Part shown: piece by piece, positions 18,918 through 32,199 of the stretch | Position numbering within the stretch: position 1 is the stretch's first letter | How the letters are laid out: each line of letters opens with the position of its first letter | NCBI GenBank assembly: GCA_963832675.1 | Contig: CAWHUY010000012.1 | Coordinates: 16,857 to 80,856, forward strand | DNA length: 64,000 nucleotides | Direction: 5' to 3' | Origin: an uncultured Spirochaetota bacterium | GTDB taxonomy: Bacteria; Spirochaetota; Spirochaetia; DSM-27196; DATKUC01 | Position numbers and translations under genes: made by a program | The notes under the pieces: generated by a model | Databases searched by the model: none | What the model saw: the letters and a program-made list of their open reading frames with translations, nothing else | What the model was told of the DNA's origin: nothing

Positions 18918-20165
18918 CTACATGTCTGATTCGGAAATCGTGGACAGGTCTGCAGCTCCCTTTTGGTCGACGTCTCCGGTGTACTGCTCGCCGTACAGCT
19001 CTTGAAAGAGCGTTTCCATGTTTTCGAGGGACATGTCGAGGAAACGGATCCCGAGATAGATCCTGTCGGCATCCTTGTAGCGCCGCATGATTCGTCCCTT
19101 GGCCGGAAGACTCTTTTCGCCGAGATAAATCGTAAGGTCGAGATCGGTGTACAAGCCCAGGTTTGGCCCGTTCAGCGGATAACCGAATAGCAGCCCGGAT
19201 CCGCTGATGTCGATGAGCTCCGCGCTGCCGAATTCCTCTTTGACCGGTTCGGCTTTGAAATAGCCGTTCACGGTCAGTGAGTAAGCCAAAACTCGTGAAA
19301 ACTGAAAGACAAATTCAATCGCCTTGGGCTCGAACCCCGGAGTAAGCTCTTTGGACCGCAGCAGGTAGAGGTACCCGACAACATACTGATGAAAGAGGAC
19401 CGGACAGTAGAGTTCCGCGGCAATACCGCGCTGCTTCTGGCGATCACCCACCGCAGAGATGCTCTGCAGCGCGGTGAACACCTCTTCTCCCGCGGTTGTT
19501 TCCACGCGGACAACATCCGGCTGCGTCAGAATCCTTTCCCGTATCACTCTACTGATTTTGAGCGTATCGGGAGAGACGAACGGAAGGATGAGGATCTTGC
19601 CGGAGTTTCCAATAACCCGCTCCTCGAACAATTGCGGCCTACGCTCCCGGAACATGACTATTTTGTTCTCCGAGGAAAACTCACGCGCCCGCTCCCGGAA
19701 CGACCTCAGGAGCTCGCTTATGCGGGCGGCGTCGAATGTCGGCTCAACTGCAGCACTCTCGATCCGCTCCGAAACTTCACCCCGCGGGTAGTTGAGCTCC
19801 ACCTGCTTCCCGTCCACGAGAAAGGTCACCCGCACGCCCTTTGGCGAGATGATGCGTTCATATCCGCGTGTGAGATCCCGCAGAATTTCCTTTGGCCCCA
19901 ACGCGTGGATCATCGAGCCCTTCTTTGCCGTGATCTTGGTCTTGAAGGTCATCGGGTTGCCGCGGAAGCGGAAGTAAAAAACCCCTTCGGAGGGTCCTGG
20001 AATTCGCAGTGGCGATTGCAACTCGCACTCCAGCTTATTGTTCGCGAAAGAGGATATAGTACAACTGGCGCGTTGAGTGTCGACGTGAATTTCCAGTGGA
20101 GACTTGTTCTCCACCACGGTCTTGAGGATGAACTCTTTTTCGATCCTGTTCAGCTCATTTGCCAT
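18918..20165 (-). CDS. PilZ-like domain protein with N-terminal PilZN-type domains
   Basis: C-terminal AELIDISGSGLLF...AKGRIMRRY...GIRFLDMS matches the D/NxSxxG half of the PilZ motif. I could not see a clear RxxxR upstream. 415 aa. Confidence 0.6.
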   Translation of the reverse strand: MANELNRIEKEFILKTVVENKSPLEIHVDTQRASCTISSFANNKLECELQSPLRIPGPSEGVFYFRFRGNPMTFKTKITAKKGSMIHALGPKEILRDLTRGYERIISPKGVRVTFLVDGKQVELNYPRGEVSERIESAAVEPTFDAARISELLRSFRERAREFSSENKIVMFRERRPQLFEERVIGNSGKILILPFVSPDTLKISRVIRERILTQPDVVRVETTAGEEVFTALQSISAVGDRQKQRGIAAELYCPVLFHQYVVGYLYLLRSKELTPGFEPKAIEFVFQFSRVLAYSLTVNGYFKAEPVKEEFGSAELIDISGSGLLFGYPLNGPNLGLYTDLDLTIYLGEKSLPAKGRIMRRYKDADRIYLGIRFLDMSLENMETLFQELYGEQYTGDVDQKGAADLSTISESDM

Positions 20166-21029: not shown

Positions 21030-22316
21030 ATGAACACTAAAGACAGCATAATATGGCACCTCGATCGCGAGTACACCGCTCCGGTTCGAGACCCCCTCTG
21101 GAAGCACATCTATCTTTCACACGGCCTCATGAAAGTGGTTGACTCGCCGGACTTCCAGCAGCTCCACCGGATCAAACAGCTGGGCCCGAGCTACCTCGTC
21201 TATCCTGGCGCCACTCATACGCGTCTGAACCACAGTTTCGGCGTGTTTCACCTGGCACGCCGGATCATTCGCGCTCTTCTCAGCTTCGACAGCTGCATGG
21301 AACTCAGCCTCGAGGGGGTGAAAGCTTTTCTGTGCGCGGCTTTGCTCCACGATGTGGGTCACTTCCCCTACGCGCACAGTCTGAAAGACCTGCCCCTGCG
21401 CGAGCACGAACAGCTCACCGGCCAGATCATTCTCTCCTCTCCGCTCCGTGAGATCATTCAGTCCCATGTGGGAACCGATCCTGAGATCGTTGCGGCCATT
21501 GTCGACCTCTCGCATCCAGCGGGTGAAGACGATGAAGTAGCCTTTTTCCGGCACATTCTTTCGGGTACGCTCGACCCGGACAAGCTGGACTACTTGAACC
21601 GGGATGCCTATTTCTGTGGCGTACCGTACGGGATTCAGGACATTGACTTCGCGATCAGCCGGATGCGCCCCTTCGGCAGCGCCGGCCTTGCAATGGATAT
21701 TTCGGGCATATCGGCAATCGAGCACATACTCTTTTCGAAATACCTGATGTATCGCGCCGTCTACTGGCATCGAACTGTCCGTGTCGCGACGGCCATGATC
21801 AAGAAGGCCTTGCTTCTCGCCCTCCGCGACGAGGTCATCCGCCCGGAAGAGCTCTATGGTCTCGACGATGAGCTTTTTTTCTCTCGGCTTTCGGGAATCG
21901 ACTATCCTCCCTTCGAGCTCATCACACGAGTGCCCAACAGGGAGCTGTATCGGGTTGCCTGGGACACCCCTTTCCGCGAAGACGACCCAGTGCAGCGGAG
22001 GCTCACCGACCTGGAGAACCGCACCAGGACCGAGGCCGAAATCGCCGATCGTTTGAGCTCGCCGAAAATGACTGTCCGGCCCGAGGAGGTAATTATCGAT
22101 ATTCCGGAGAACATATCCTTTGAAGTGACCATTCCTGTGGTAAACGAGGAGGGCGTGGTCGATTACATGGACTCGGGAACCGTCTTCACCCATCAGGTAG
22201 TGGAAGATTTCACGCGCACGCTTCGGCGGGTACGTCTGATCGTTTCCCCGCGGGCGGCCGCTCTCGTCGACGACGCCCCAGCGCTCCTCGCGGAGGCCCT
22301 TTCGGGGAGTGTATGA
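21030..22316 (+). CDS. HD-domain phosphohydrolase, dNTP triphosphohydrolase (dGTPase/SAMHD1)-like
   Basis: THTRLNHSFGVFHLA...ALLHDVGHFPYAH...LDPDKLDYLNRDAYFCG are the HD and downstream motifs of this family. Confidence 0.75.
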   Translation: MNTKDSIIWHLDREYTAPVRDPLWKHIYLSHGLMKVVDSPDFQQLHRIKQLGPSYLVYPGATHTRLNHSFGVFHLARRIIRALLSFDSCMELSLEGVKAFLCAALLHDVGHFPYAHSLKDLPLREHEQLTGQIILSSPLREIIQSHVGTDPEIVAAIVDLSHPAGEDDEVAFFRHILSGTLDPDKLDYLNRDAYFCGVPYGIQDIDFAISRMRPFGSAGLAMDISGISAIEHILFSKYLMYRAVYWHRTVRVATAMIKKALLLALRDEVIRPEELYGLDDELFFSRLSGIDYPPFELITRVPNRELYRVAWDTPFREDDPVQRRLTDLENRTRTEAEIADRLSSPKMTVRPEEVIIDIPENISFEVTIPVVNEEGVVDYMDSGTVFTHQVVEDFTRTLRRVRLIVSPRAAALVDDAPALLAEALSGSV

Positions 22317-23143
22317 CGCAAATTCAGGAGCTCATGCAGGGCGAGATACCCCCACGGATCAGGCGGTTCGTCAAGACGGTGGGGCGTGGCATAAATGAGT
22401 TCCAGATGATCGGCGAGGGAGACTCCGTGCTTCTCGGCATTTCCGGAGGCAAGGACTCGCTTGCCATGGCGCTCGCGCTCTCACTTCGCCGCCGCTGGCT
22501 GCCGATCAAGTACAACCTCCACGCGGTGCAAATCGAGTGGGCCGAATACCCGCTGACTCGAGAGTCGAAGGAACAGCTTGGCGCCTACTTTGACACCCTC
22601 GAAATACCGTTCCAGTTCCTCGAAGCGCACATGTTTCCCGAATCCTTTCGCGGCAAGTTCAGTTGCTACCTTTGTTCCCGCAATCGCAAACGAATATTTT
22701 TTGACCACATCAATCGACTCGGTACCAACAAAATCGCTCTCGGGCACCATCTCGACGACATAATCGAAACCACCCTGATGAATCTTTTCTACCACGGTTC
22801 CTTTGGCACGATGATGCCGGTGCAGGATTTCTTCGGTGGTAAGACGCAGATCATCCGCCCGATGTGCCGAGTCACGGATGCCACTGTGCGCAATATCTCC
22901 GCATTCCTCGATCTGCCCGTTGTTTCTATCAACTGTCCGCACAAAGACACGACGATCCGAACGGACATGAAGCTGATCATTCAATCACTTGCACACAAGA
23001 ACAAACATGTCCGCGAAAACATCTACCGCGCACCCTGGAATATCCTCACCGACTACCTTCCGGGACCGCAGAAACCGCGGATGGAGCCCAACGCGACGGC
23101 CGCTCCCGACCCGTTCTCGGCTTGCAACAGCTCTCGAAGTTGA
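22313..23143 (+). CDS. PP-loop ATP pyrophosphatase, TtcA-like tRNA thiolation enzyme family
   Basis: SGGKDS PP-loop (LLGISGGKDSLAMA), plus Cys motifs CYLCSRNRKR and INCPHKD. The ATG overlaps the HD gene stop (ATGA). Confidence 0.7.
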   Translation: MTQIQELMQGEIPPRIRRFVKTVGRGINEFQMIGEGDSVLLGISGGKDSLAMALALSLRRRWLPIKYNLHAVQIEWAEYPLTRESKEQLGAYFDTLEIPFQFLEAHMFPESFRGKFSCYLCSRNRKRIFFDHINRLGTNKIALGHHLDDIIETTLMNLFYHGSFGTMMPVQDFFGGKTQIIRPMCRVTDATVRNISAFLDLPVVSINCPHKDTTIRTDMKLIIQSLAHKNKHVRENIYRAPWNILTDYLPGPQKPRMEPNATAAPDPFSACNSSRS

Positions 23144-23163: not shown

Positions 23164-23622
23164 ATGAAGAAGCCAAAATTAATGAAAGAACGTATCCGTC
23201 GGGTAAGTGTATTGTTCAAAGAGCTCGGCTACGATCTGCAGGATCACGAGTACTTCGACGATACCTTCACCGCCGGGCTTCTCTCCGACGACGGTTTTCA
23301 GGCAGGCCTGTTCATCGACAAGGAGAGCAAATTTCTCGAGCTCGCGTTCACGTTTTCATTTTCCCCTTCGCTGTCGGAGTTCATCAAAGAGCGAATCGAA
23401 GAGATGCTTCACATTGTCTACGAATTCGGCTGCTACATAAGTATTCAGAACTCGTCGCGAGAGATCTCGTTCTCCCTTTTTTCGAAAATCTATTACGTCG
23501 GTTTGAACTATCTCACGCTTCGGGAAACTCTGAAGGACTTCCGCGGAGCTATCGACGCGCTCCAGGAGCTTCTGGAGATCCAGAAAGAGTTCGGAAAGGG
23601 AGCCTCTCATGGAGATTCATAA
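23164..23622 (+). CDS. hypothetical cytoplasmic protein (possibly YbjN/chaperone-like fold)
   Basis: Starts at the internal ATG at 23164 (MKKPKLMKERIRRV...). Acidic, 152 aa. No motif I can name with confidence. Confidence 0.45.
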   Translation: MKKPKLMKERIRRVSVLFKELGYDLQDHEYFDDTFTAGLLSDDGFQAGLFIDKESKFLELAFTFSFSPSLSEFIKERIEEMLHIVYEFGCYISIQNSSREISFSLFSKIYYVGLNYLTLRETLKDFRGAIDALQELLEIQKEFGKGASHGDS

Positions 23623-24319
23623 TCTCATGGAAGACGAGGTTATCCGAATTGTCAGTGAAATCGCGGACGAAGACGCCCGGACAGGGGCGTATGGATACGC
23701 GACGACTCCCGAGTGCCAGATGGATGCGGCCTGCTTCGTCCTGAACCGGATTCCTCAGCAGTACGTCACCTCCGGGCGCGGGCTCACCTACCTGCAGAAT
23801 GAATTTCGTGAGAATCCGCAGCTTGCTGTCGACCTGGTTACGCTGGCTCATGAAGGGTTGCGGCGCGTGAGCACCGTGCAACGCTCCTACTACGCGAACG
23901 GGTCGGCGGTCGATTCCCCCGCGCAGAATCCGTACGACGGTTCCGTCCCCGCCCATCACTTTCCGGCCATACGCGGCCGCGTGTTCGACTGCATGACCTT
24001 TGCGCCGGTTGTTGGAGTCGAAGTCTGGCTCAAGCGGGATGGGGCCCCTGCCCCTATGGTCAACGGGCGCTGGCAGAATCCGTGCGGGTTGGTCGACAGC
24101 ACCGCCGGCAGCTATATGTTCTGGCCTGCACCGGTGCCCGCGACGGAGACAGGAGAGCGGAAACTGTTCGAATTTGAAGTCACGGTGGAAGAGTCGAACG
24201 AGTACGAGGCCTTTCATCACTTCTTCAAGCTCGAGGCCACCTCATCCGATTTCGAAGACAACACGCTGCGTCTGACCCGCGAATACATGCTCCAGGATCT
24301 GTTTCTCGCCCGCAGATGA
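23609..24319 (+). CDS. ComFB-domain protein with C-terminal carboxypeptidase-regulatory-like beta-sandwich
   Basis: NLMEDEVIRIVSEI...ECQMDAACFVLNRIPQQYVTSGRG matches the ComFB pattern (Cys...D..alaLN.lpP.Yv). The C-terminal IRGRVFDCMTFAPVVGVEVWL is CarboxypepD_reg-like. Overlaps the upstream gene by 14 nt. Confidence 0.6.
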   Translation: MEIHNLMEDEVIRIVSEIADEDARTGAYGYATTPECQMDAACFVLNRIPQQYVTSGRGLTYLQNEFRENPQLAVDLVTLAHEGLRRVSTVQRSYYANGSAVDSPAQNPYDGSVPAHHFPAIRGRVFDCMTFAPVVGVEVWLKRDGAPAPMVNGRWQNPCGLVDSTAGSYMFWPAPVPATETGERKLFEFEVTVEESNEYEAFHHFFKLEATSSDFEDNTLRLTREYMLQDLFLARR

Positions 24320-24337: not shown

Positions 24338-24625
24338 CTAGAAGAACTCGGAAGTAATACTCACATCCTGGAGCCTGCCAGGAACCTCGTCTTCGACGAA
24401 ACGGAGAACCTTCTGCATGACACCTTCGCCAAACGTCCGCGAGTTGGAGACCACCGCACCGCCGATTTGCGCAAACGACAGGCTGTCCAGGAGATCAACT
24501 TCGGCAGCCGAGATTCGGTATTTTACTCGAATTCTCTCTTTCAAGGATTTCACGATTTTCCGCTTTTCTTTGATCGATGTGACGTCGGGCAGCTCGAGAA
24601 TGAGCTGAATCATTGAAACTACCAC
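24338..24625 (-). CDS. DUF503 (YlxP-like) protein
   Basis: 95 aa. IQLILELPDVTSIKEKRKIVKSLKERI...FAQIGGAVVSN is typical of DUF503. Confidence 0.7.
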   Translation of the reverse strand: MVVSMIQLILELPDVTSIKEKRKIVKSLKERIRVKYRISAAEVDLLDSLSFAQIGGAVVSNSRTFGEGVMQKVLRFVEDEVPGRLQDVSITSEFF

Positions 24626-24649: not shown

Positions 24650-25786
24650 TCAGTCGAACAGCTCGTTGATGTTATCTACCTTCAGATCGAGAACACCGGC
24701 ACCGCGGTCGCCGCCCATTCGGTCTTTGAGCGGCAGATATTGTTCGTTGTACTTTCTCGCAAGCTTGAACAGATCGTCACCTGCGTAAGCCTCGGGAATG
24801 CGCACCGCCAGGTTATAGGCGGCTTCGGAAAAACCGCGGCGCATGACGTGAATCGGGTCAGAAATGGTCAGTGCGAAATGGGGCCCATAGTAGAAGAGCA
24901 TCATGAGGACGAGCAGGACAATCGCGGCGAAATAGACCAGGTTGCTGTAGGATTGCTGTGCATTCAGCACTCGAAGGTCGAAAAACAGCTCCAATCCGGC
25001 GCTTTTGATATATCCGTAATCGTTTGGCCCGAAATAGCTCACATAGTACTGGTTGCCGAAACGGCTGTAACGGGTCGTTCCGTCGGATTTCACAATGAGC
25101 AGCGACTGCTCGGTATCCGCGTAAGAGGAAAGTCTGGCGGCCTCAGCGGGATCGGCGAGTTTCTCCTTCTGTATGAAAGAAACCACCTTTGGCGGACTTT
25201 GCTGAAATTGGTCCTGGATACCGGGGATCGAGATAAGGGAGCTAAGCAGACTCCCCGCCATGACCACAAAGATAAACACCGACACGCCGACGGTCGCGAC
25301 TTTACCGACGTGCCGTTGCGCCATCACTGAGTCGACGTTCTTTACGCGGCGAAGCAACTTCAATATCCTGAGGAGCCTCAGGATTCGTGCGATCCGTATG
25401 GCTTTCACCACTTTGAGCACATTCATGAAACTACCGAAGCCGCCGAGGAGAGTCGTTCCCGTGAGCAGCGCGAGTACGGCCGGACCCGAATTGAGAAGCA
25501 GCAGCGGGATGGATGCAAGAAAGTCTACCCAACCCCGTTCGTGGAGAAAGTACCGCGTGGCGCGGCGGTTGAGAAGCGCGAAATAGAATCGCGTCAGGAA
25601 CTCGATTGTGAAGAAGAGATCGAAACCGAAACCCGTGAAGACCAGTGTGCGGCGGATACTCCATTTCCAGCCCGAGACGACAGCGAAGTCCTCGAGAAAA
25701 GTTTGCACCAGCACGAGAAGAATTGCTGCGATGACGAGGCCTTCGAAAAAATCCACCCAGCGGTTTCGTTTCATCATCTGTCCCAC
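24650..25786 (-). CDS. voltage-sensor-domain membrane protein with an extracytoplasmic insert and a C-terminal HAMP-like domain (no pore, no output domain)
   Basis: S1-S3 hydrophobic helices, then S4 with Arg/Lys at every third position (KAIRIARILRLLRILKLLRR). A fifth TM, an insert of about 95 aa, a sixth TM, then PIHVMRRGFSEAAYNLAVRIPEAYAGDDLFKLARKYNEQYL (HAMP-like). No TxGYG filter. Confidence 0.6.
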   Translation of the reverse strand: MGQMMKRNRWVDFFEGLVIAAILLVLVQTFLEDFAVVSGWKWSIRRTLVFTGFGFDLFFTIEFLTRFYFALLNRRATRYFLHERGWVDFLASIPLLLLNSGPAVLALLTGTTLLGGFGSFMNVLKVVKAIRIARILRLLRILKLLRRVKNVDSVMAQRHVGKVATVGVSVFIFVVMAGSLLSSLISIPGIQDQFQQSPPKVVSFIQKEKLADPAEAARLSSYADTEQSLLIVKSDGTTRYSRFGNQYYVSYFGPNDYGYIKSAGLELFFDLRVLNAQQSYSNLVYFAAIVLLVLMMLFYYGPHFALTISDPIHVMRRGFSEAAYNLAVRIPEAYAGDDLFKLARKYNEQYLPLKDRMGGDRGAGVLDLKVDNINELFD

Positions 25787-25798
25787 CAGTCTCCCGGG

Positions 25799-26728
25799 CT
25801 ACCAGCCGTTCTCGGCCGCAATCATGTAGAATTCGTCCAGCATCTTCACGTCGAACCCGTAGAAGCGGTAGTTGCGGCGCGCAATGCTCAACCAGCTCTT
25901 GTCCGGAGAGTCTGCACCGCGATCGACGCGCAGCTGAGGATGATAATTTCGGCAGCGCGCCGCGAATACCGCGGCGATTCTTGCCGTCGCCTCAACGAAC
26001 CGGTTTTCTGAGAAGGAGATGTTCGCATTGACCGCGCTTCGGACAAGCTGTTCCGGAAGCAACTTCAGCTGACCGGTCAGCGCCTCGACCACCTTTTCCG
26101 CAAACTGCGGCTGAATGGTGCCGGCGATTCGTTCCTGCCCAACCACGTTGCTCGAAGCGGTCAACGCATATATAGCCGGACGAAGGAGCAGGGTTGCCAG
26201 GACAAGGCCGCGGATTTCGTCTTTGCCGATCCGCAGCCGCTGAACCTTTGTCAGCTCGAAATGCACGTAGGATTTCCGGAGAAATATCTCGTCTATATAC
26301 CGGTCGACGGCGCCGAAGACCAGGGCGGCAAAGGCGCCGGTGAACGCCCGTCGGGCGTCCAGGTTGGCCAGCAGGCTTACGAGAAAATTGTATATTTCGG
26401 ATTGAATTTTCGAGATGTCGGTCGTTCGCTGTTTCAGGATTGGAGCAAACGCGAAAGATACTTTTGTGAACACAATCTCTTTGAGCTCCGGAAAAAGCCG
26501 CTCGTTCGTCTCTCTCGCCATCGCCTGGACCAGAATTGCGAACACCTGACTCCAGCTTTTTCCAACGAAATAGGGTGCTGCGGTGAGAGTCGGGGCGAGC
26601 TGTGCAGCATTGGCGTGAAGGAATTGTATAACCTGCTCCTCGCGCTGCAGTTCGGAAAAACCCTTCAGTGCGGGATTGGCGAGAAGTCGTTGTACGAATG
26701 TTTGTGCACGGTCAATCTCTTCGATCAT
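25799..26728 (-). CDS. hypothetical protein, co-transcribed with the voltage-sensor/HAMP gene
   Basis: Start taken at the internal ATG at 26728 (MIEEIDRAQTFVQRLL...). Helical, no recognisable motif. Its stop is 12 nt before the next gene start. Confidence 0.5.
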   Translation of the reverse strand: MIEEIDRAQTFVQRLLANPALKGFSELQREEQVIQFLHANAAQLAPTLTAAPYFVGKSWSQVFAILVQAMARETNERLFPELKEIVFTKVSFAFAPILKQRTTDISKIQSEIYNFLVSLLANLDARRAFTGAFAALVFGAVDRYIDEIFLRKSYVHFELTKVQRLRIGKDEIRGLVLATLLLRPAIYALTASSNVVGQERIAGTIQPQFAEKVVEALTGQLKLLPEQLVRSAVNANISFSENRFVEATARIAAVFAARCRNYHPQLRVDRGADSPDKSWLSIARRNYRFYGFDVKMLDEFYMIAAENGW

Positions 26729-26792: not shown

Positions 26793-29700
26793 ATGAGGTT
26801 CGACACAACCCGCGGCGTATCCACGGTCGCCCGCTTGCTGCCCCTGATCGCCATGCTCGTGGTAGTGCTGGTGCCGGACGGTGTCGCGCAGGTCGTGCTC
26901 CCGGAGGCGGTCCGCCAGAATTTGCCCGACTACCTCTTCCTGGGCGAAGCCCCCACTGCCCTGCTGCAAAGTAAAGTGGGCGACGCCGATGTCGACCTCT
27001 ATGCCGCAGGATCGTGGCAAACAACTATTTCAGCATCGCTCGCAATCGGGATTCATCCGGGCCTGGGAAACGGCAGCGGCTATCAGTTCCCCTACCCTTT
27101 TCCCGGTATGGACCCGTTCTCGTTCCTCAACCAGGTCGACCTTACCATATCCCTCTGGATCCTCAACCGCTATTTCTTCCAGACAACATTTCTTGACCAG
27201 TTTGCTCTCAACACTTTTCTTCTCGGTTACCAGGGTCAAAAGGGCGAGTTCGTGCAGAAGGTCCTCATCGGCAATACACTAATGCCGTTTTCTCAGTATC
27301 CGTTCCTCGCAGTCGACGGCACCGAATACCCGACGGATCAGAGGCCGCTCGGCCCGGCCACACAGCCAACGGCCAATGGGGCAATTCCGGCGCCCGGAAC
27401 GGCACCTGCAGGACAGACGCCGGCATCTGAGGGCGATATCCCGCCTTTCAACCCTCCGGCATCTGCCGGCATAACGCCCGATTCAAGCAGCTCCTCCGGG
27501 GGAGCTCCGGCTACGCCTCGGGCGCAACCAACGTGACGAATTCGCTGGGAATTGCCGCTCTGTTCGAGACCGACCGCAGTCGGCACGAGCTCGTCTTTCG
27601 CTACGAGGACAACGGACTGGCCCACAAGTCCTACCTGGGCACAAACGAGGTTGTACGAACGCACATCAACCCGGCCGACTACACCTCGGGCAGATTCTTC
27701 GTCCTTCCGGACGCGAACATCACGAATCTGCAGGTTTACCTGGAAGATCCGGCAGGGACGGTTCCCGCCACAAGCATAGGTGGCGCCTTCGGGATGTTCA
27801 GGAAGGCGAATCTCGATCAGATTGCCGTGTATGATCTGCAGGCGGGAACGCTGTTTCTGCGGGAAAAACCGGTGGGCCGAGTACTCGTGACCTACACGAA
27901 AGGGGGCGCCACCGTCGGAGACGCAAGCCTCGGGCAACAATGCCGTCTATGCTCTGATTACAGCCGGAGCGCCGATTCGGGAACTACCCGGTCCAATTCG
28001 ACTGGAATGCCCCAGCGGCTACACGCCACCGAACTTCAACAACATGATGTCAGACAGTGGCCGCGTCGACGTAGACGACATCCACTACACCATCGGCGGC
28101 ACCGACTACCTCCTGCTGTGGCAACCCGGCTACTACTCGCCCTTCGAGCTGCAGAACCAGTACGACGCGACCGACGCGGTCAACAACGCGAACTCGACGG
28201 TCGGAACGATTGCCGCAACACGGGCGATCATCGCGCGTCGCGGCACCTCCTCGCCCTACACGCTTTCACCGAACAGAAACGCCGTGATCATCCCCGACGA
28301 CAACCGGGTAGCCGTCGTCGATCCGGCCGACTCGAGCGTCCGCGACTTCGTGAACCGTTACCCGTTCGCCGACACACAGCCCGAGCTACCCCGACCTCTA
28401 CGGGGTCAGCCCCAACGCAATCCCGGCCTACACCCCGTTCGACGTCATGATCGAACAGCAGATCACGCGCACCGCGATTACGATCGACAGCGACGCGGTT
28501 CCCGGCTCGGTGCATGTTGCGATCAACGGCAAGGAGACAACTTCGTTCACCGTCGACTACACATCCGGCACCGTGAGCTTTCCCTTTCCGATAGTGCCGA
28601 CCGACAATATCGACATCACCTACCGGACGCGAAGCGCGGGAACAACGGGCGGCCAGATAGTCTTCGGCAGCGGCAACACGATCCTGCTCTCCAACCGGCT
28701 GGTTCTCGACCTCGCGCTCGGCCTCCGCTGGAGCGTGCTCACCGGCGGCTACACTACCGAGCCCGGCCAGAGCCCCGGCTCTATCGTGACCTCGGCTCGA
28801 CTCTCCTACACCGGCACGCGATTCACCGGCTCAATCGCCGCCGGCGTTTCGGTGACCTCTCCGGACACCACGGGGATTCTTCGGCTTGCGGGCATGGGCG
28901 AAGACACCAGCCTTTTCGCCGTCGATGCGACGCGGCTTCTGCCCTCGGCCGCTGCCGACGGAGCTGGGTGCCTTCACCGAAACGAACCGGGGTGAAACCT
29001 ACTACAAAGACTACGGCGCGAAAGACCCGCTTGGGGGAACATCACTGCAGCCCTACAACTGGTCGAGCATCCCCTCGTCGCAGCAGTACCCCTACGCGAG
29101 CGGTTCGCGTATCGGGCCCTATGCGGCGACCGGGGGAACCGACGGACCCGACGGACAGGTGATGGTGCTCGACTATCACCTCGCGAACAGCCAATGGGTC
29201 GGCGGTGACCTCGCCGCGCCCTCCGGACAGGAGCTCGATCTTTCGGCGGCGCGGGCAATCGCGGTGACCTGGCGGCTGGCCTCTCCGCTCTCCGGATCGG
29301 TCTCCGGTACGCGTGCGCATCTTTCTGCAGGCGGGAAGCCTCGGCGAAGACCGTGACGGCAACGGTCAGCTCGACTCGGGCAACAGCGCGGTGAACCCCG
29401 GCTTCGACTTTCATGACAGCGCGCACAGCAACATTGTGCTGCGGGCGGGCGGGCCGCCCTGGACTCCCTTCGTTCACACCGAGGACACCAACGGAAACGG
29501 GATCCTTGATGCGAGGAAGTCAAACATCGTACTTACCAAGGAGTTGAGCGTAGACAGCAGCGACGTAAGTTCGCCCGTAAGCGCGGCCACCGGCTTTGTT
29601 CGTACCGAAATCCCGCTGACCGCGGCCGACCGGGCGAAGCTGCGCGACGTGCGCGGCGTGCGGATTGTCGTGTACGACACAGCCGGCGGTTCCGACGGGC

Positions 29701-32199
29701 GCGTCGTTGTCGGCGGGATCACGATCGAGGGAACGAGCTTTTCGGGAGCGATCAACCCGGCATCGAGCACCGGAACGCTCAACCTGCGAGAAACCGACGA
29801 ATCGGTTCTCGCTCCGGCAACTCCCCTGCTGAACGCCTTTCCCGAAACATCACCGATGCTCGCCGGCTCGGCCGCCAACCAGGTGCTGCTCGTCTCGTGG
29901 GGCTCGCCGACTCCATTTGCGACCACCGACACCTGGTCGGCAGTCCACTACACCACACCTGTTCTCGACAGCCAGTACAGCGACCTGGTCTTCTACGTCG
30001 GCGCCGGCCGCGTTGAACGGCGGCCCCGCCGAAATCCTCACGGTTCACTATGACTACGATGATACGACTCCCGGACTGAACGCGACGTTCACGTGCCTGC
30101 GGTAGACAGCCCGCCCCACTGGCACAAGATCGATATCGGCCTCGCCGCCCGGACTGTCTCCATAGACGGCACGCGTCGATCCGGGCGCTACGGTCAGCTT
30201 CAGCCCTTCGGGAAACAACGCTGACCCGGCTGCAGTTCGACGGCACCGGCACAACGACCGGCGAGGCTCGCCATAGACGAAATCGCGTTGACAAATGCGG
30301 CGACCCGCTGGGGTGCGGGCACCCAGGTGCAGGCTACCTACTCGGCGCCGGGGGTTATCCTCCACTCCGGGAGATGTCTCGATATTGAAAGATGCGACGA
30401 TTTCGGCAAGCGGCTATGCCCGCACCAGCGGATTCGCTCGATGGCGCAGGAAACCAACCCGCAGAACGCAGGCCTCGCGCTGCAGGGCGGTGCCGACATC
30501 CTCATTGCTCATCTCGACGCGAATTTTTCCGTCGACGGTTCCTGGACCGATGCAAACGTGCCGGGGTCGAGAAGCGATCTGGTCACCGCGGGCGGCCACG
30601 CGTTGCGGCTTCCGGCCGCGCCATCGCCGGTAACCTTCACTGACGCGTTTCAGCGCAGCTATTCGCCCGTTCAACCGCAACTCTTCCGGAAGAACACCCT
30701 CAGCCGTCGCCATCCCGCAGGCGTTGAGCATAACCCTGGGAACCCAGGGGTCCTATCCCGGGCAGCTTAACGCCAATGTCTCCGGCAGTACGACGACCTC
30801 CGGCGCGACCTTGAACCAGACCTGGACAACTACGGTAAGCTCCGCCTGGCCCGGTCCGTTCTCGCTCCAGCTCGGCGCAAACTTCTCCGACCTCTCTTCA
30901 TACGATCTTACCGACAACTCCGCCTATCCGGTGGCATGGATCGACGCCTACCGGTTTGCCCTTCCGTGGAACGCCGATCCTTCCGCAACGAGAACCGGCA
31001 CCATGACGCTGGACCTGGCATTGAATCTGGCGGCTGTGGCGCCTGAATTGTCGTTCGCGGCAAGCTACCAGACCGCCTACGGCAGCTCCGGGTCATCGGG
31101 TGTAACGCAGACAAATCAGCAGCTTTCCACGGCGTCAGTGACGCTGAGTGTCCCGATAACACTGGTCCCCGCAGCCGGGGGCTCCCCGCAATCCGGCCTT
31201 CTCTCCGGCCTGACCATAACGCCGTCCTATCAGCGCGTGGTCAAGGCCGCTGGGATTCCGGTCCGATCATGGCTGTCGGTGATGGGAGCGGACGCGTCGA
31301 CCGCAGCGTCGGTGATGGACTTTCGCCTCTACGGAAACGATATCGCCTATTACGGCGGCTCGATTTCCGATCAGACCTACTTCTTCACGGCGGCGCCATT
31401 CTACGATCTTTTCTCCCAGCCGCTCGTCGGGACATTCGCAAGTCAGAGCAGCGGTTACGCATACGCGCTTTATGAGCCCGGTACCTCGCTCGGGATATCC
31501 CGATCGATCGGATCGAACTGGGCCGACCTCATTGTGCCGAACCGCGTCCAGGTGAGCGGTGAGCCGTGATCTGACTCGCCAGGCGGACTCGGTCACGGAC
31601 GGGAACAGCGTCGACATCGGTCTTACCTACGCGGCGATCAATCTGTTCGGTCGACTCGGCGCCTACCCCCTATTTCCGTTTTACCGCAGCGAAGAGATAA
31701 CTTCCTCGATCGATCTGAAGTTCCAGACTGCGACGACCCAGACCGGGCCCTACTGGTCGCTCTATCATCTGCTGAGCACTACGGTACGGGTCACCGAGGA
31801 AGACAGCGTGTCGCTCGATAATCAGTTTACGGTGAGCGCGCAGCCTGAGACCGCCTATTCGGATACCGGAACGGCGGCCTTCAACTGGCGAACCCATCCG
31901 ACCACAATCTTCGGGATCAAGCAAGATTAGCGACGCGCTCGCAAACGGGGCCTACGTCGCGCACAAGGAGGCAGCGTCGGTCGCATGGAACCAGACGCCC
32001 ACGGTTCTCGGATTGGCCCAATCCGGTTTGACGCTGACTCTCGAACACGACAGCGGACTTGCACATTCCCAAAATGGGTGAGATTTCCGTCTTCGGAAAG
32101 TTCGGTTTTGGACTGACTCCCTACTCCACAAGCCCCTCAGACGGCCAGATCGTGTCGCTCGGCCTGCAGATCGGAATCAAGGGACAGCTTCAATTCTAG
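26793..32199 (+). pseudogene. giant (about 1800 aa when reconstructed) exported, beta-rich, Ca-loop-containing envelope protein, disrupted by at least 13 frame changes
   Basis: Signal peptide MRFDTTRGVSTVARLLPLIAMLVVVLVPDGVAQ. Sense jumps between frames at about 27534, 27933, 28380, 28935, 29310, 30010, 30100-30290, 30700, 31555, 31915 and 32080. Contains DRDGNGQLD and DTNGNGILD loops. Ends ...GLQIGIKGQLQF then TAG. Confidence 0.7.

Follow-up and report, generated by a model that had tools for sequence, protein, structure and literature searches.

In bacteria, S4-type voltage sensors have to our knowledge been characterised in ion channels only, and the known voltage sensors that drive non-pore effectors, namely the voltage-sensing phosphatases, Hv1 and TMEM266, are all eukaryotic. 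In Ci-VSP/TPTE, Hv1 and TMEM266 the helices S1 to S4 are joined to a non-pore effector and the sensor ends at S4, followed by a phosphatase, a coiled coil or a cytoplasmic tail. In the BacNav channels (NavAb/NaChBac) and KvAP the sensor leads through S5 into a turret, a pore helix, a selectivity filter and a channel-type S6. The sensor kinase WalK, the chemoreceptors and Af1503 are built in the order transmembrane (TM) helix, extracytoplasmic α/β domain, TM helix and a helix-connector-helix of ~50 amino acids (aa), the HAMP domain, which in Af1503 is reportedly the only cytoplasmic domain, with no output domain attached. We know of no characterised HAMP protein with a preceding four-helix voltage sensor. 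Here we describe a gene with features of all of these in a 64,000 nucleotide stretch of DNA (the window) from an uncultured Spirochaetota bacterium (assembly GCA_963832675.1, contig CAWHUY010000012.1, positions 16,857 to 80,856). The gene lies on the minus strand at 24650..25786 and encodes a pore-less voltage-sensor protein (the sensor protein) in which a small, variable periplasmic α/β domain takes the place of the pore loop and a HAMP-like hairpin follows the last TM helix. A full-text literature search on voltage-sensor topics returned no description of this family or of a bacterial S4-type sensor joined to a transducer.

Like Ci-VSP/TPTE, Hv1 and TMEM266, the sensor protein joins S1-S4 to a non-pore effector; unlike them it is bacterial, keeps the S4-S5 linker, S5 and S6, includes a periplasmic domain as well as a HAMP-like hairpin, and lacks an enzyme domain. 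With the BacNav channels and KvAP it shares topology and a homologous S1-S5 region, including the S4 charges, the charge-transfer centre and the S3 proline. In contrast to these channels it has no turret, pore helix, selectivity filter or channel-type S6 (positions 152-241 of the Pfam Ion_trans profile), a folded soluble domain stands where the pore would be, and the pattern of conservation is inverted. The back half has the element order of WalK, the chemoreceptors and Af1503, and the Af1503 segment NLEAEVP....ADEIGILAKSI is in register with NLAVRIP....DDLFKLARKYN of the window protein over the connector and second helix. It differs from these receptors in a hairpin with an unusual first helix and a HAMP score below the Pfam threshold, in the absence of a kinase or methyl-accepting chemotaxis protein (MCP) module, and in the four-helix voltage sensor in front.

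The open reading frame closes with a stop codon at 24650-24652 and gives a product of 378 aa from a GTG at 25786 or 374 aa from an ATG at 25774. A GGGAG box lies 5 nt 5' of the GTG, while the identical database entry, labelled 'ion transporter' in the databases, begins at ATG 25774 and has 374 aa; most homologues have 369-388 aa. The initial annotation had given a 12-nt gap to the upstream gene, which holds if translation starts at GTG 25786 and becomes 24 nt with ATG 25774. All of the peptides it had quoted are present (KAIRIARILRLLRILKLLRR at residues 128-147, the insert peptide, and SDPIHVMRRGF...DDLFKLARKYNEQYL), and the early stop it had placed ~30 aa after the HAMP-like sequence is found 27 aa past NEQYL. 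The reading frame and its architecture are real and far beyond chance. The same layout recurs in hundreds of proteins, and we regard the anatomy set out below as well supported and very probably right.

Residues 9-146 (25349..25762) form a complete voltage-sensor domain, S1 to S4, in which S4 carries six to nine charges and the charge-transfer centre is intact. In the window protein residues 12-185 match Pfam Ion_trans (E 2e-11; 44 bits, where the cut-off is 25), and 85/95 diverse relatives match it too. Within S4 (residues 117-149, 25340..25438) a lysine or arginine occurs at every third position, K125, K128, R131, R134, R137, R140, K143, R146 and K149. The earlier description of channel-like S1-S3 helices with a basic S4 is confirmed. 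S2 holds D56, F59, E62 and R66, and S3 holds D88 and P94. In a HMMER alignment with the Kv1.2-2.1 chimera, F59, E62, R66, D88 and P94 fall on F233, E236, R240, D259 and P265, and R134, R137, R140, K143 and R146 fall on R2-R4, K5 and R6, with the charge ladder prolonged outward by R131, K128 and K125. In Kv1.2 numbering, F233, E236 and D259 reportedly form the gating charge-transfer centre, and P265 is the S3 proline.

Conservation was scored over 95 cluster representatives, which share 23-50% identity with the window protein. D56, F59, E62, R66, D88, R131, R134, R137, R140 and K143 are invariant or at least 90% conserved among them, as is the S3 proline P94 (at least 90%). Because the key residues are near-invariant across such divergent representatives, the sensor domain looks like a working voltage sensor and not a relic. 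In a Foldseek search the sensor domain of Ci-VSP (4g7y) was a structural match to the N-terminal part, with a TM-score of 0.60 on the target. By sequence, solved structures are similar only weakly (E 0.03-0.08, S2-S5 of Kv/Cav channels), and the full-length family profile likewise found just weak Kv/Cav sensor matches in the PDB (E 0.04-0.08), so that PDB sequence searches add little beyond Pfam. The S4-S5 linker and S5 follow at residues 150-186 (25229..25339), where the Ion_trans match ends. The linker carries the family motif S153-x-M-A-Q-R-H159, of which S153 and H159 are at least 90% conserved among the representatives, and S5 proper is poorly conserved (0.31).

The channel homology stops at S5. 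Ion_trans coverage in the window protein is limited to profile positions 5-151 of 241, S1 to S5, and no match extends beyond position 151 in this protein or, likewise, in the 85/95 relatives that match the family. We modelled the sensor protein with AlphaFold2 (AF2) as a monomer from a 30-sequence alignment (mean per-residue confidence, pLDDT, 74.5; predicted TM-score, pTM, 0.66). After S4 the model has two TM helices, S5 at residues 154-184 and a sixth at 272-308. A hydropathy scan gives TM-like windows for S1, S3, S5 (159-191) and S6 (278-308), so that two TM helices after the S4-S5 linker are present by both methods, and it gives none in residues 192-276, even at a lax threshold. By their lysine and arginine counts, both termini, the S2-S3 loop and the S4-S5 linker lie inside, and the stretch inserted between S5 and S6 lies outside. 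Between S5 and S6 we found neither the re-entrant pore helix nor the selectivity filter of a six-TM channel. This is in agreement with the initial annotation, which had reported no P-loop or selectivity filter; nor is there a complete Ion_trans pore domain or, in a segment modelled as a soluble fold at pLDDT 84-90, a re-entrant pore loop. A hidden pore domain was rejected on the same grounds: Ion_trans stops at 151, the insert is polar without a hydrophobic window, and the model is a soluble α/β domain.

The insert spans residues 187-271 (24974..25228). Its elements follow in the order helix, helix, strand, strand, helix, strand, strand, with helices at 190-207, 213-225 and 245-251 and strands at 229-234, 237-241, 257-262 and 265-270 (pLDDT 84-90). 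The pore loop is replaced by a small, variable periplasmic α/β domain. We found no profile match to the insert, Cache/PDC families included, in Pfam searches of 19 C-terminal halves and 95 full proteins or in a PDB profile search, and a Cache/PDC identity was rejected; only the order of secondary structure, with its four strands, is PDC/Cache-like. NCBIfam returned a weak, non-significant PhoR match to residues 244-323. The insert is the least conserved region of the protein (0.26), and two distant members (P0336 and P0390) have different, longer inserts. Because it is both least conserved and swapped in distant members, the insert is unlikely, as judged from the alignments, to be a conserved ligand sensor. 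Of the earlier proposal of a small periplasmic sensor domain, the folded extracytoplasmic domain stands; the likeness to a sensor is weakened by the lack of a Cache profile match and of conservation.

The sixth TM helix (residues 272-308, 24863..24973), also anticipated in the initial annotation, is found in the AF2 model and as a hydropathy window, and its cytoplasmic end is conserved (Y300, P302, H303, F304). Directly after it comes a helix-connector-helix of about 50 residues with a conserved opening proline (residues 309-357, 24716..24862), modelled as a helix at 311-320, a 17-residue connector and a helix at 338-357. The consensus of this hairpin is SDPIHVMRRGF..YNL.V.IP....DD.F.LA..YN..YLPLKDR, with D310, P311, G318, Y324, N347, L351, P352 and K354 as conserved residues; P311 does not vary among close relatives, and in distant ones it is 75-90% conserved. 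Pfam HAMP matches at sub-threshold scores in 5/19 C-terminal halves (best E 0.002) and in 6/95 full proteins. It is the commonest secondary Pfam family among the relatives and is always located just after TM6. The best of the sub-threshold full-protein matches covers residues 297-340 of P0249 and profile positions 4-47 of 53 (18.5 bits against a cut-off of 25, E 0.0027).

To compare the hairpin with HAMP directly we used hhalign with a reference of seven HAMP sequences, 6/7 of which pass the Pfam cut-off of 25 bits (PhoQ scores 24.4). The family segment aligns in register with the seven aligned sequences (E 0.009, 34 columns), and a profile of the 95-sequence family does so with P 8e-4 at a probability of 24% over 25 columns. 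The real score of 17.7 compares with 8.4 ± 1.8 (maximum 15.1) for column-shuffled HAMP, and 0/200 shuffles reach it. The similarity is mainly in the connector and second helix, and the opening proline is aligned only in a global alignment. In a fold search with the whole model the best match was the sensor kinase WalK (probability 0.84, E 0.3), chemoreceptor models were also listed, and nothing was found at E≤1e-3. We therefore call the segment HAMP-like: by sequence its resemblance to HAMP appears weak, above chance and short of the family's membership threshold. The HAMP-like domain that the initial annotation had named survives in this weaker form, carried by the in-register alignment and the shuffles and not by a Pfam match in the window protein.

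The tail (residues 358-378, 24653..24715) has pLDDT below 50 except for a helix at 371-377. A conserved N-x3-L-P-x-K motif at the C-terminal end leads into it, and it consists of a Gly/acid-rich linker and then a short acidic amphipathic helix (LDLKVDNINELFD), with L368 and D372 at least 90% conserved in close relatives. Three longer relatives (P0245, P0249 and P0255; 459-509 aa) have a C-terminus extended by 90-140 strongly acidic, low-complexity residues. In the window protein, the short acidic tail may represent a minimal form of such a disordered acidic arm. Output domains in the longer members were looked for and rejected, as the extensions are acidic low-complexity tails only.

An exhaustive search of 1.84 billion representative proteins with a back-half profile, which covered insert, TM6, hairpin and tail, recovered a family of 230 proteins at E≤1e-3 (clusters at 50% identity). 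In all full-length matches the module occupies residues ~180-375 of proteins of ~355-400 aa, and among the 1.84 billion representatives it was found in no other architecture. Pfam revealed no output family of any kind, be it kinase, MCP, GGDEF or another, in the window protein, as had been claimed for it, or among the 95 diverse relatives; the absent families include HisKA with HATPase_c and MCPsignal, the domains of a two-component kinase and of an MCP. Even the distant members P0336 and P0390 retain the sensor domain, the linker motif, the SDPIxVM..G segment and the YN..xLPxK motif. Mean conservation is 0.64 in S3, 0.62 in S4, 0.57 in both the S4-S5 linker and the hairpin, 0.42 in S6, 0.31 in S5, 0.27 in the tail and 0.26 in the insert. 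In channels the pore is usually the most conserved half. By this measure the family would exhibit the reverse of the pattern expected for a channel, and the low value of the insert argues against a conserved periplasmic ligand site.

The gene upstream of the sensor gene (25799..26728, minus strand) is the candidate partner. Its open reading frame has 351 aa from the first ATG; because homologues have 296-309 aa, the 309-aa version at 25799-26728 is likely the actual gene. The product was described earlier as a 309-aa helical protein with no recognisable motif, and this description is upheld. AF2 predicts a soluble all-helical protein (pLDDT 85, pTM 0.87), the hydropathy scan gives no TM segment, and the 434 homologues of ~308 aa are all unnamed. 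Searches returned no Pfam or NCBIfam family and no PDB profile match. By fold, the model has no counterpart in BFVD or in the PDB, where the best E is 0.66 and the TM-score does not exceed 0.21. On the predicted model the partner may represent a new fold. The C-terminal motif DRGADSPDKSW...YGFDVKMLDE is very strongly conserved. One JGI label names the protein DNA polymerase III gamma/tau; we rejected this assignment, as there is no family, PDB profile or fold match.

We examined the neighbours of the sensor gene at 84 related loci from Spirochaetales species, of which three without the partner end at a contig edge, leaving 81 informative. The 309-aa gene lies directly upstream of the sensor gene in 79/84 loci, or 79/81 informative ones. 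The linkage persists at 39-73% protein identity, and the two genes are separated by a few bases or have overlapping stop and start codons. The close coupling to an upstream gene noted in the window is upheld.

We propose that the sensor protein is a membrane-potential sensor that is not a channel and that signals through its hairpin and tail to the 309-aa partner, a reading to which we give a probability of about 0.45. In the mechanism that we envisage, a change in membrane potential would shift S4. The S4-S5 linker, with S153 and H159, would lie at the inner face of the membrane beside the end of S6 and the start of the hairpin (Y300, F304, D310, P311 and G318), and would push on them as it does on S6 in channels. 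This push would change how S5, S6 and the hairpin pack together, probably within a dimer like those of the two-TM sensor kinases and chemoreceptors. The output would be an altered binding surface, formed by the hairpin, the LPxK motif and the acidic tail, for a cytoplasmic reader, of which the co-transcribed 309-aa all-helical protein is the most likely candidate. More tentatively, and with the odds somewhat against it, the protein might be the first dedicated prokaryotic membrane-potential receptor, one in which the sensor drives a HAMP-like transducer and, through it, a cytoplasmic partner with an unseen all-helical fold.

Several observations weigh against this proposal. The window protein has no Pfam HAMP match at E≤1 and its C-terminal half has none at E≤10; by the curated Pfam threshold the hairpin is not a member of HAMP (PF00672), and a sequence profile of the back half found no HAMP protein in the PDB at E≤10. 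The first hairpin helix is short, with the invariant G318 in its middle, which is atypical of HAMP. AF2 confidence is only moderate in S4 and in the hairpin, in what is a monomer model, and WalK resembles this model only weakly in fold (TM-score 0.29, root mean square deviation 11.5 Å). Two loci with more than 3 kb of upstream sequence (L052, 1-3300, and L084, 1-3600) have the sensor gene without the 309-aa gene; because the partner is absent from these two species' loci, it is not obligatory at this position. At both loci the sensor gene adjoins directly the giant divergent gene described below. The family occurs in one order, where its locus belongs to a wider block of synteny with the giant gene and the ComFB, HD and PilZ genes, and the adjacency of the partner could in part be inherited gene order, which makes the linkage suggestive and not decisive. 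Finally, we infer the function of the sensor protein from its sequence and from monomer models.

Three other explanations are less probable in our view. The sensor protein might be an unconventional ion conductor, either a filter-less S5/S6 tetramer capped by periplasmic domains or a proton-conducting sensor domain like that of Hv1, with the C-terminal helices serving merely for oligomerisation. The 'ion transporter' label, the retention of S5 and S6, and the Ion_trans alignment of the distant P0336, which extends to profile position 221 of 241 and thus into S6, would suit a conductor, and Hv1 is an established precedent for a channel made of a sensor domain and a C-terminal coiled coil. We nevertheless consider a conductor improbable. 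The protein has neither a P-loop nor a hydrophobic re-entrant segment, S5 and S6 are among its least conserved parts and contain no conserved polar or glycine-hinge residues, and the strongest family-specific conservation falls in cytoplasmic segments that a pore does not need. In Hv1 the mid-membrane acidic residue D112 of S1 serves proton selectivity, and by eye the alignment exhibits no conserved mid-S1 acid of this kind.

The conserved cytoplasmic segments also bear on the idea that the protein is a voltage-sensing regulatory subunit of a membrane machine encoded elsewhere, for instance a transporter, flagellar stator or secretion component, with the upstream gene a mere operon neighbour. 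The sensor protein has no output domain, two species keep the sensor gene without the upstream partner at that position, and the synteny may be partly inherited within one order. Yet the partner is found in 79/81 informative loci at 39-73% identity and tight spacing, and the best-conserved residues outside the voltage sensor are cytoplasmic and do not lie on lipid-facing TM surfaces, so that this alternative too appears unlikely. Least probable of the three, and in our judgement quite unlikely, is a periplasmic ligand sensor of the order TM helix, sensor domain, TM helix and HAMP, as in Af1503 or a sensor kinase, with S1-S4 reduced to an anchor or a modulatory input. It would account for an insert with the element order of a small PDC/Cache-type domain, for the resemblance of the back half to WalK and for the non-significant PhoR match; against it stand the absence of a Cache or PDC profile match and an insert that is the least conserved region and is exchanged for unrelated longer sequence in distant members. 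A plain anchor, moreover, would not keep its gating charges and charge-transfer centre near-invariant.

Little is known of how bacteria sense their membrane potential, although voltage matters for motility, energy homeostasis and community electrical signalling. The sensor protein is a concrete, clonable candidate for bacterial voltage-to-signal conversion, and a natural experiment in which an S4-S5 linker would drive a HAMP-type module. Its partner offers a confidently predicted fold without a match among solved structures. If the protein is a dedicated membrane-potential receptor of the kind suggested above, free-living spirochaetes would have a direct molecular read-out of membrane voltage.

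On the other side of the sensor gene lies a DUF503 gene (24338..24625, minus strand, 95 aa; Pfam E 2.3e-26), as the initial annotation had stated. It begins 24 nt past the sensor stop codon with a GGGAGG ribosome-binding site of its own, and it is downstream of the sensor gene in 76/84 loci. Convergent to this operon on the plus strand are a ComFB-domain protein (23609-24319, 236 aa; domain at residues 4-88, with a C-terminal extension of ~150 aa) and a 152-aa protein without a family (23164-23622). The ComFB gene is downstream, convergent and on the opposite strand in 68/84 related loci, and the 152-aa gene is its neighbour in three of four loci for which gene tables were inspected. ComFB proteins are receptors of cyclic di-GMP (c-di-GMP) and cyclic di-AMP (c-di-AMP) (PMC12448109). 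The same block, syntenic across Spirochaetales, holds genes for a PilZ-domain protein (18918-20165, minus strand, 415 aa; DUF1577-PilZ in relatives), an HD/HD_assoc_2 phosphohydrolase (21030-22316, plus strand) and a PP-loop ATPase (22313-23143, plus strand). This synteny hints at a second-messenger neighbourhood around the sensor operon, and on the same grounds the read-out could feed c-di-GMP or motility genes nearby (ComFB, PilZ). A defence-system reading of the locus was rejected: PADLOC gave no match for the gene pair, and the locus belongs to the conserved core of the chromosome. None of the RNA runs contains the sensor sequence, and only three DNA metagenomes share 5-8% of its words. 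A promoter/terminator scan gave a number of sites not above that of shuffled sequence.

Upstream of the partner, on the plus strand, is the giant divergent gene (26946-29750, continuing towards ~33400), which encodes 1100-1600 aa with no Pfam family in relatives. It is broken in the window: in a tblastn search the protein of one related locus (L004) matches frames 3, 2, 3, 1, 2 and 3 in succession, which implies at least four frameshifts in a stretch of 62-64% GC. Either the gene is a pseudogene or the assembly carries indel errors.

A GTDB scan with one genome per species gave 138 loci. Among the best 80 of these 138, all but one belong to Spirochaetota, with the genera Salinispira, Alkalispirochaeta, Marispirochaeta, Spirochaeta and Thalassospirochaeta represented, and one is labelled Myxococcota. 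The family is small, of one fixed architecture and almost confined to Spirochaetales; the closest named relative is in Salinispira pacifica (74% identity). The Myxococcota-labelled locus (L078, contig CALOBC010000038.1 of a metagenome-assembled genome) carries the complete partner, sensor, DUF503 and ComFB arrangement at 36-62% identity, and is probably a mis-binned contig and not a case of transfer.

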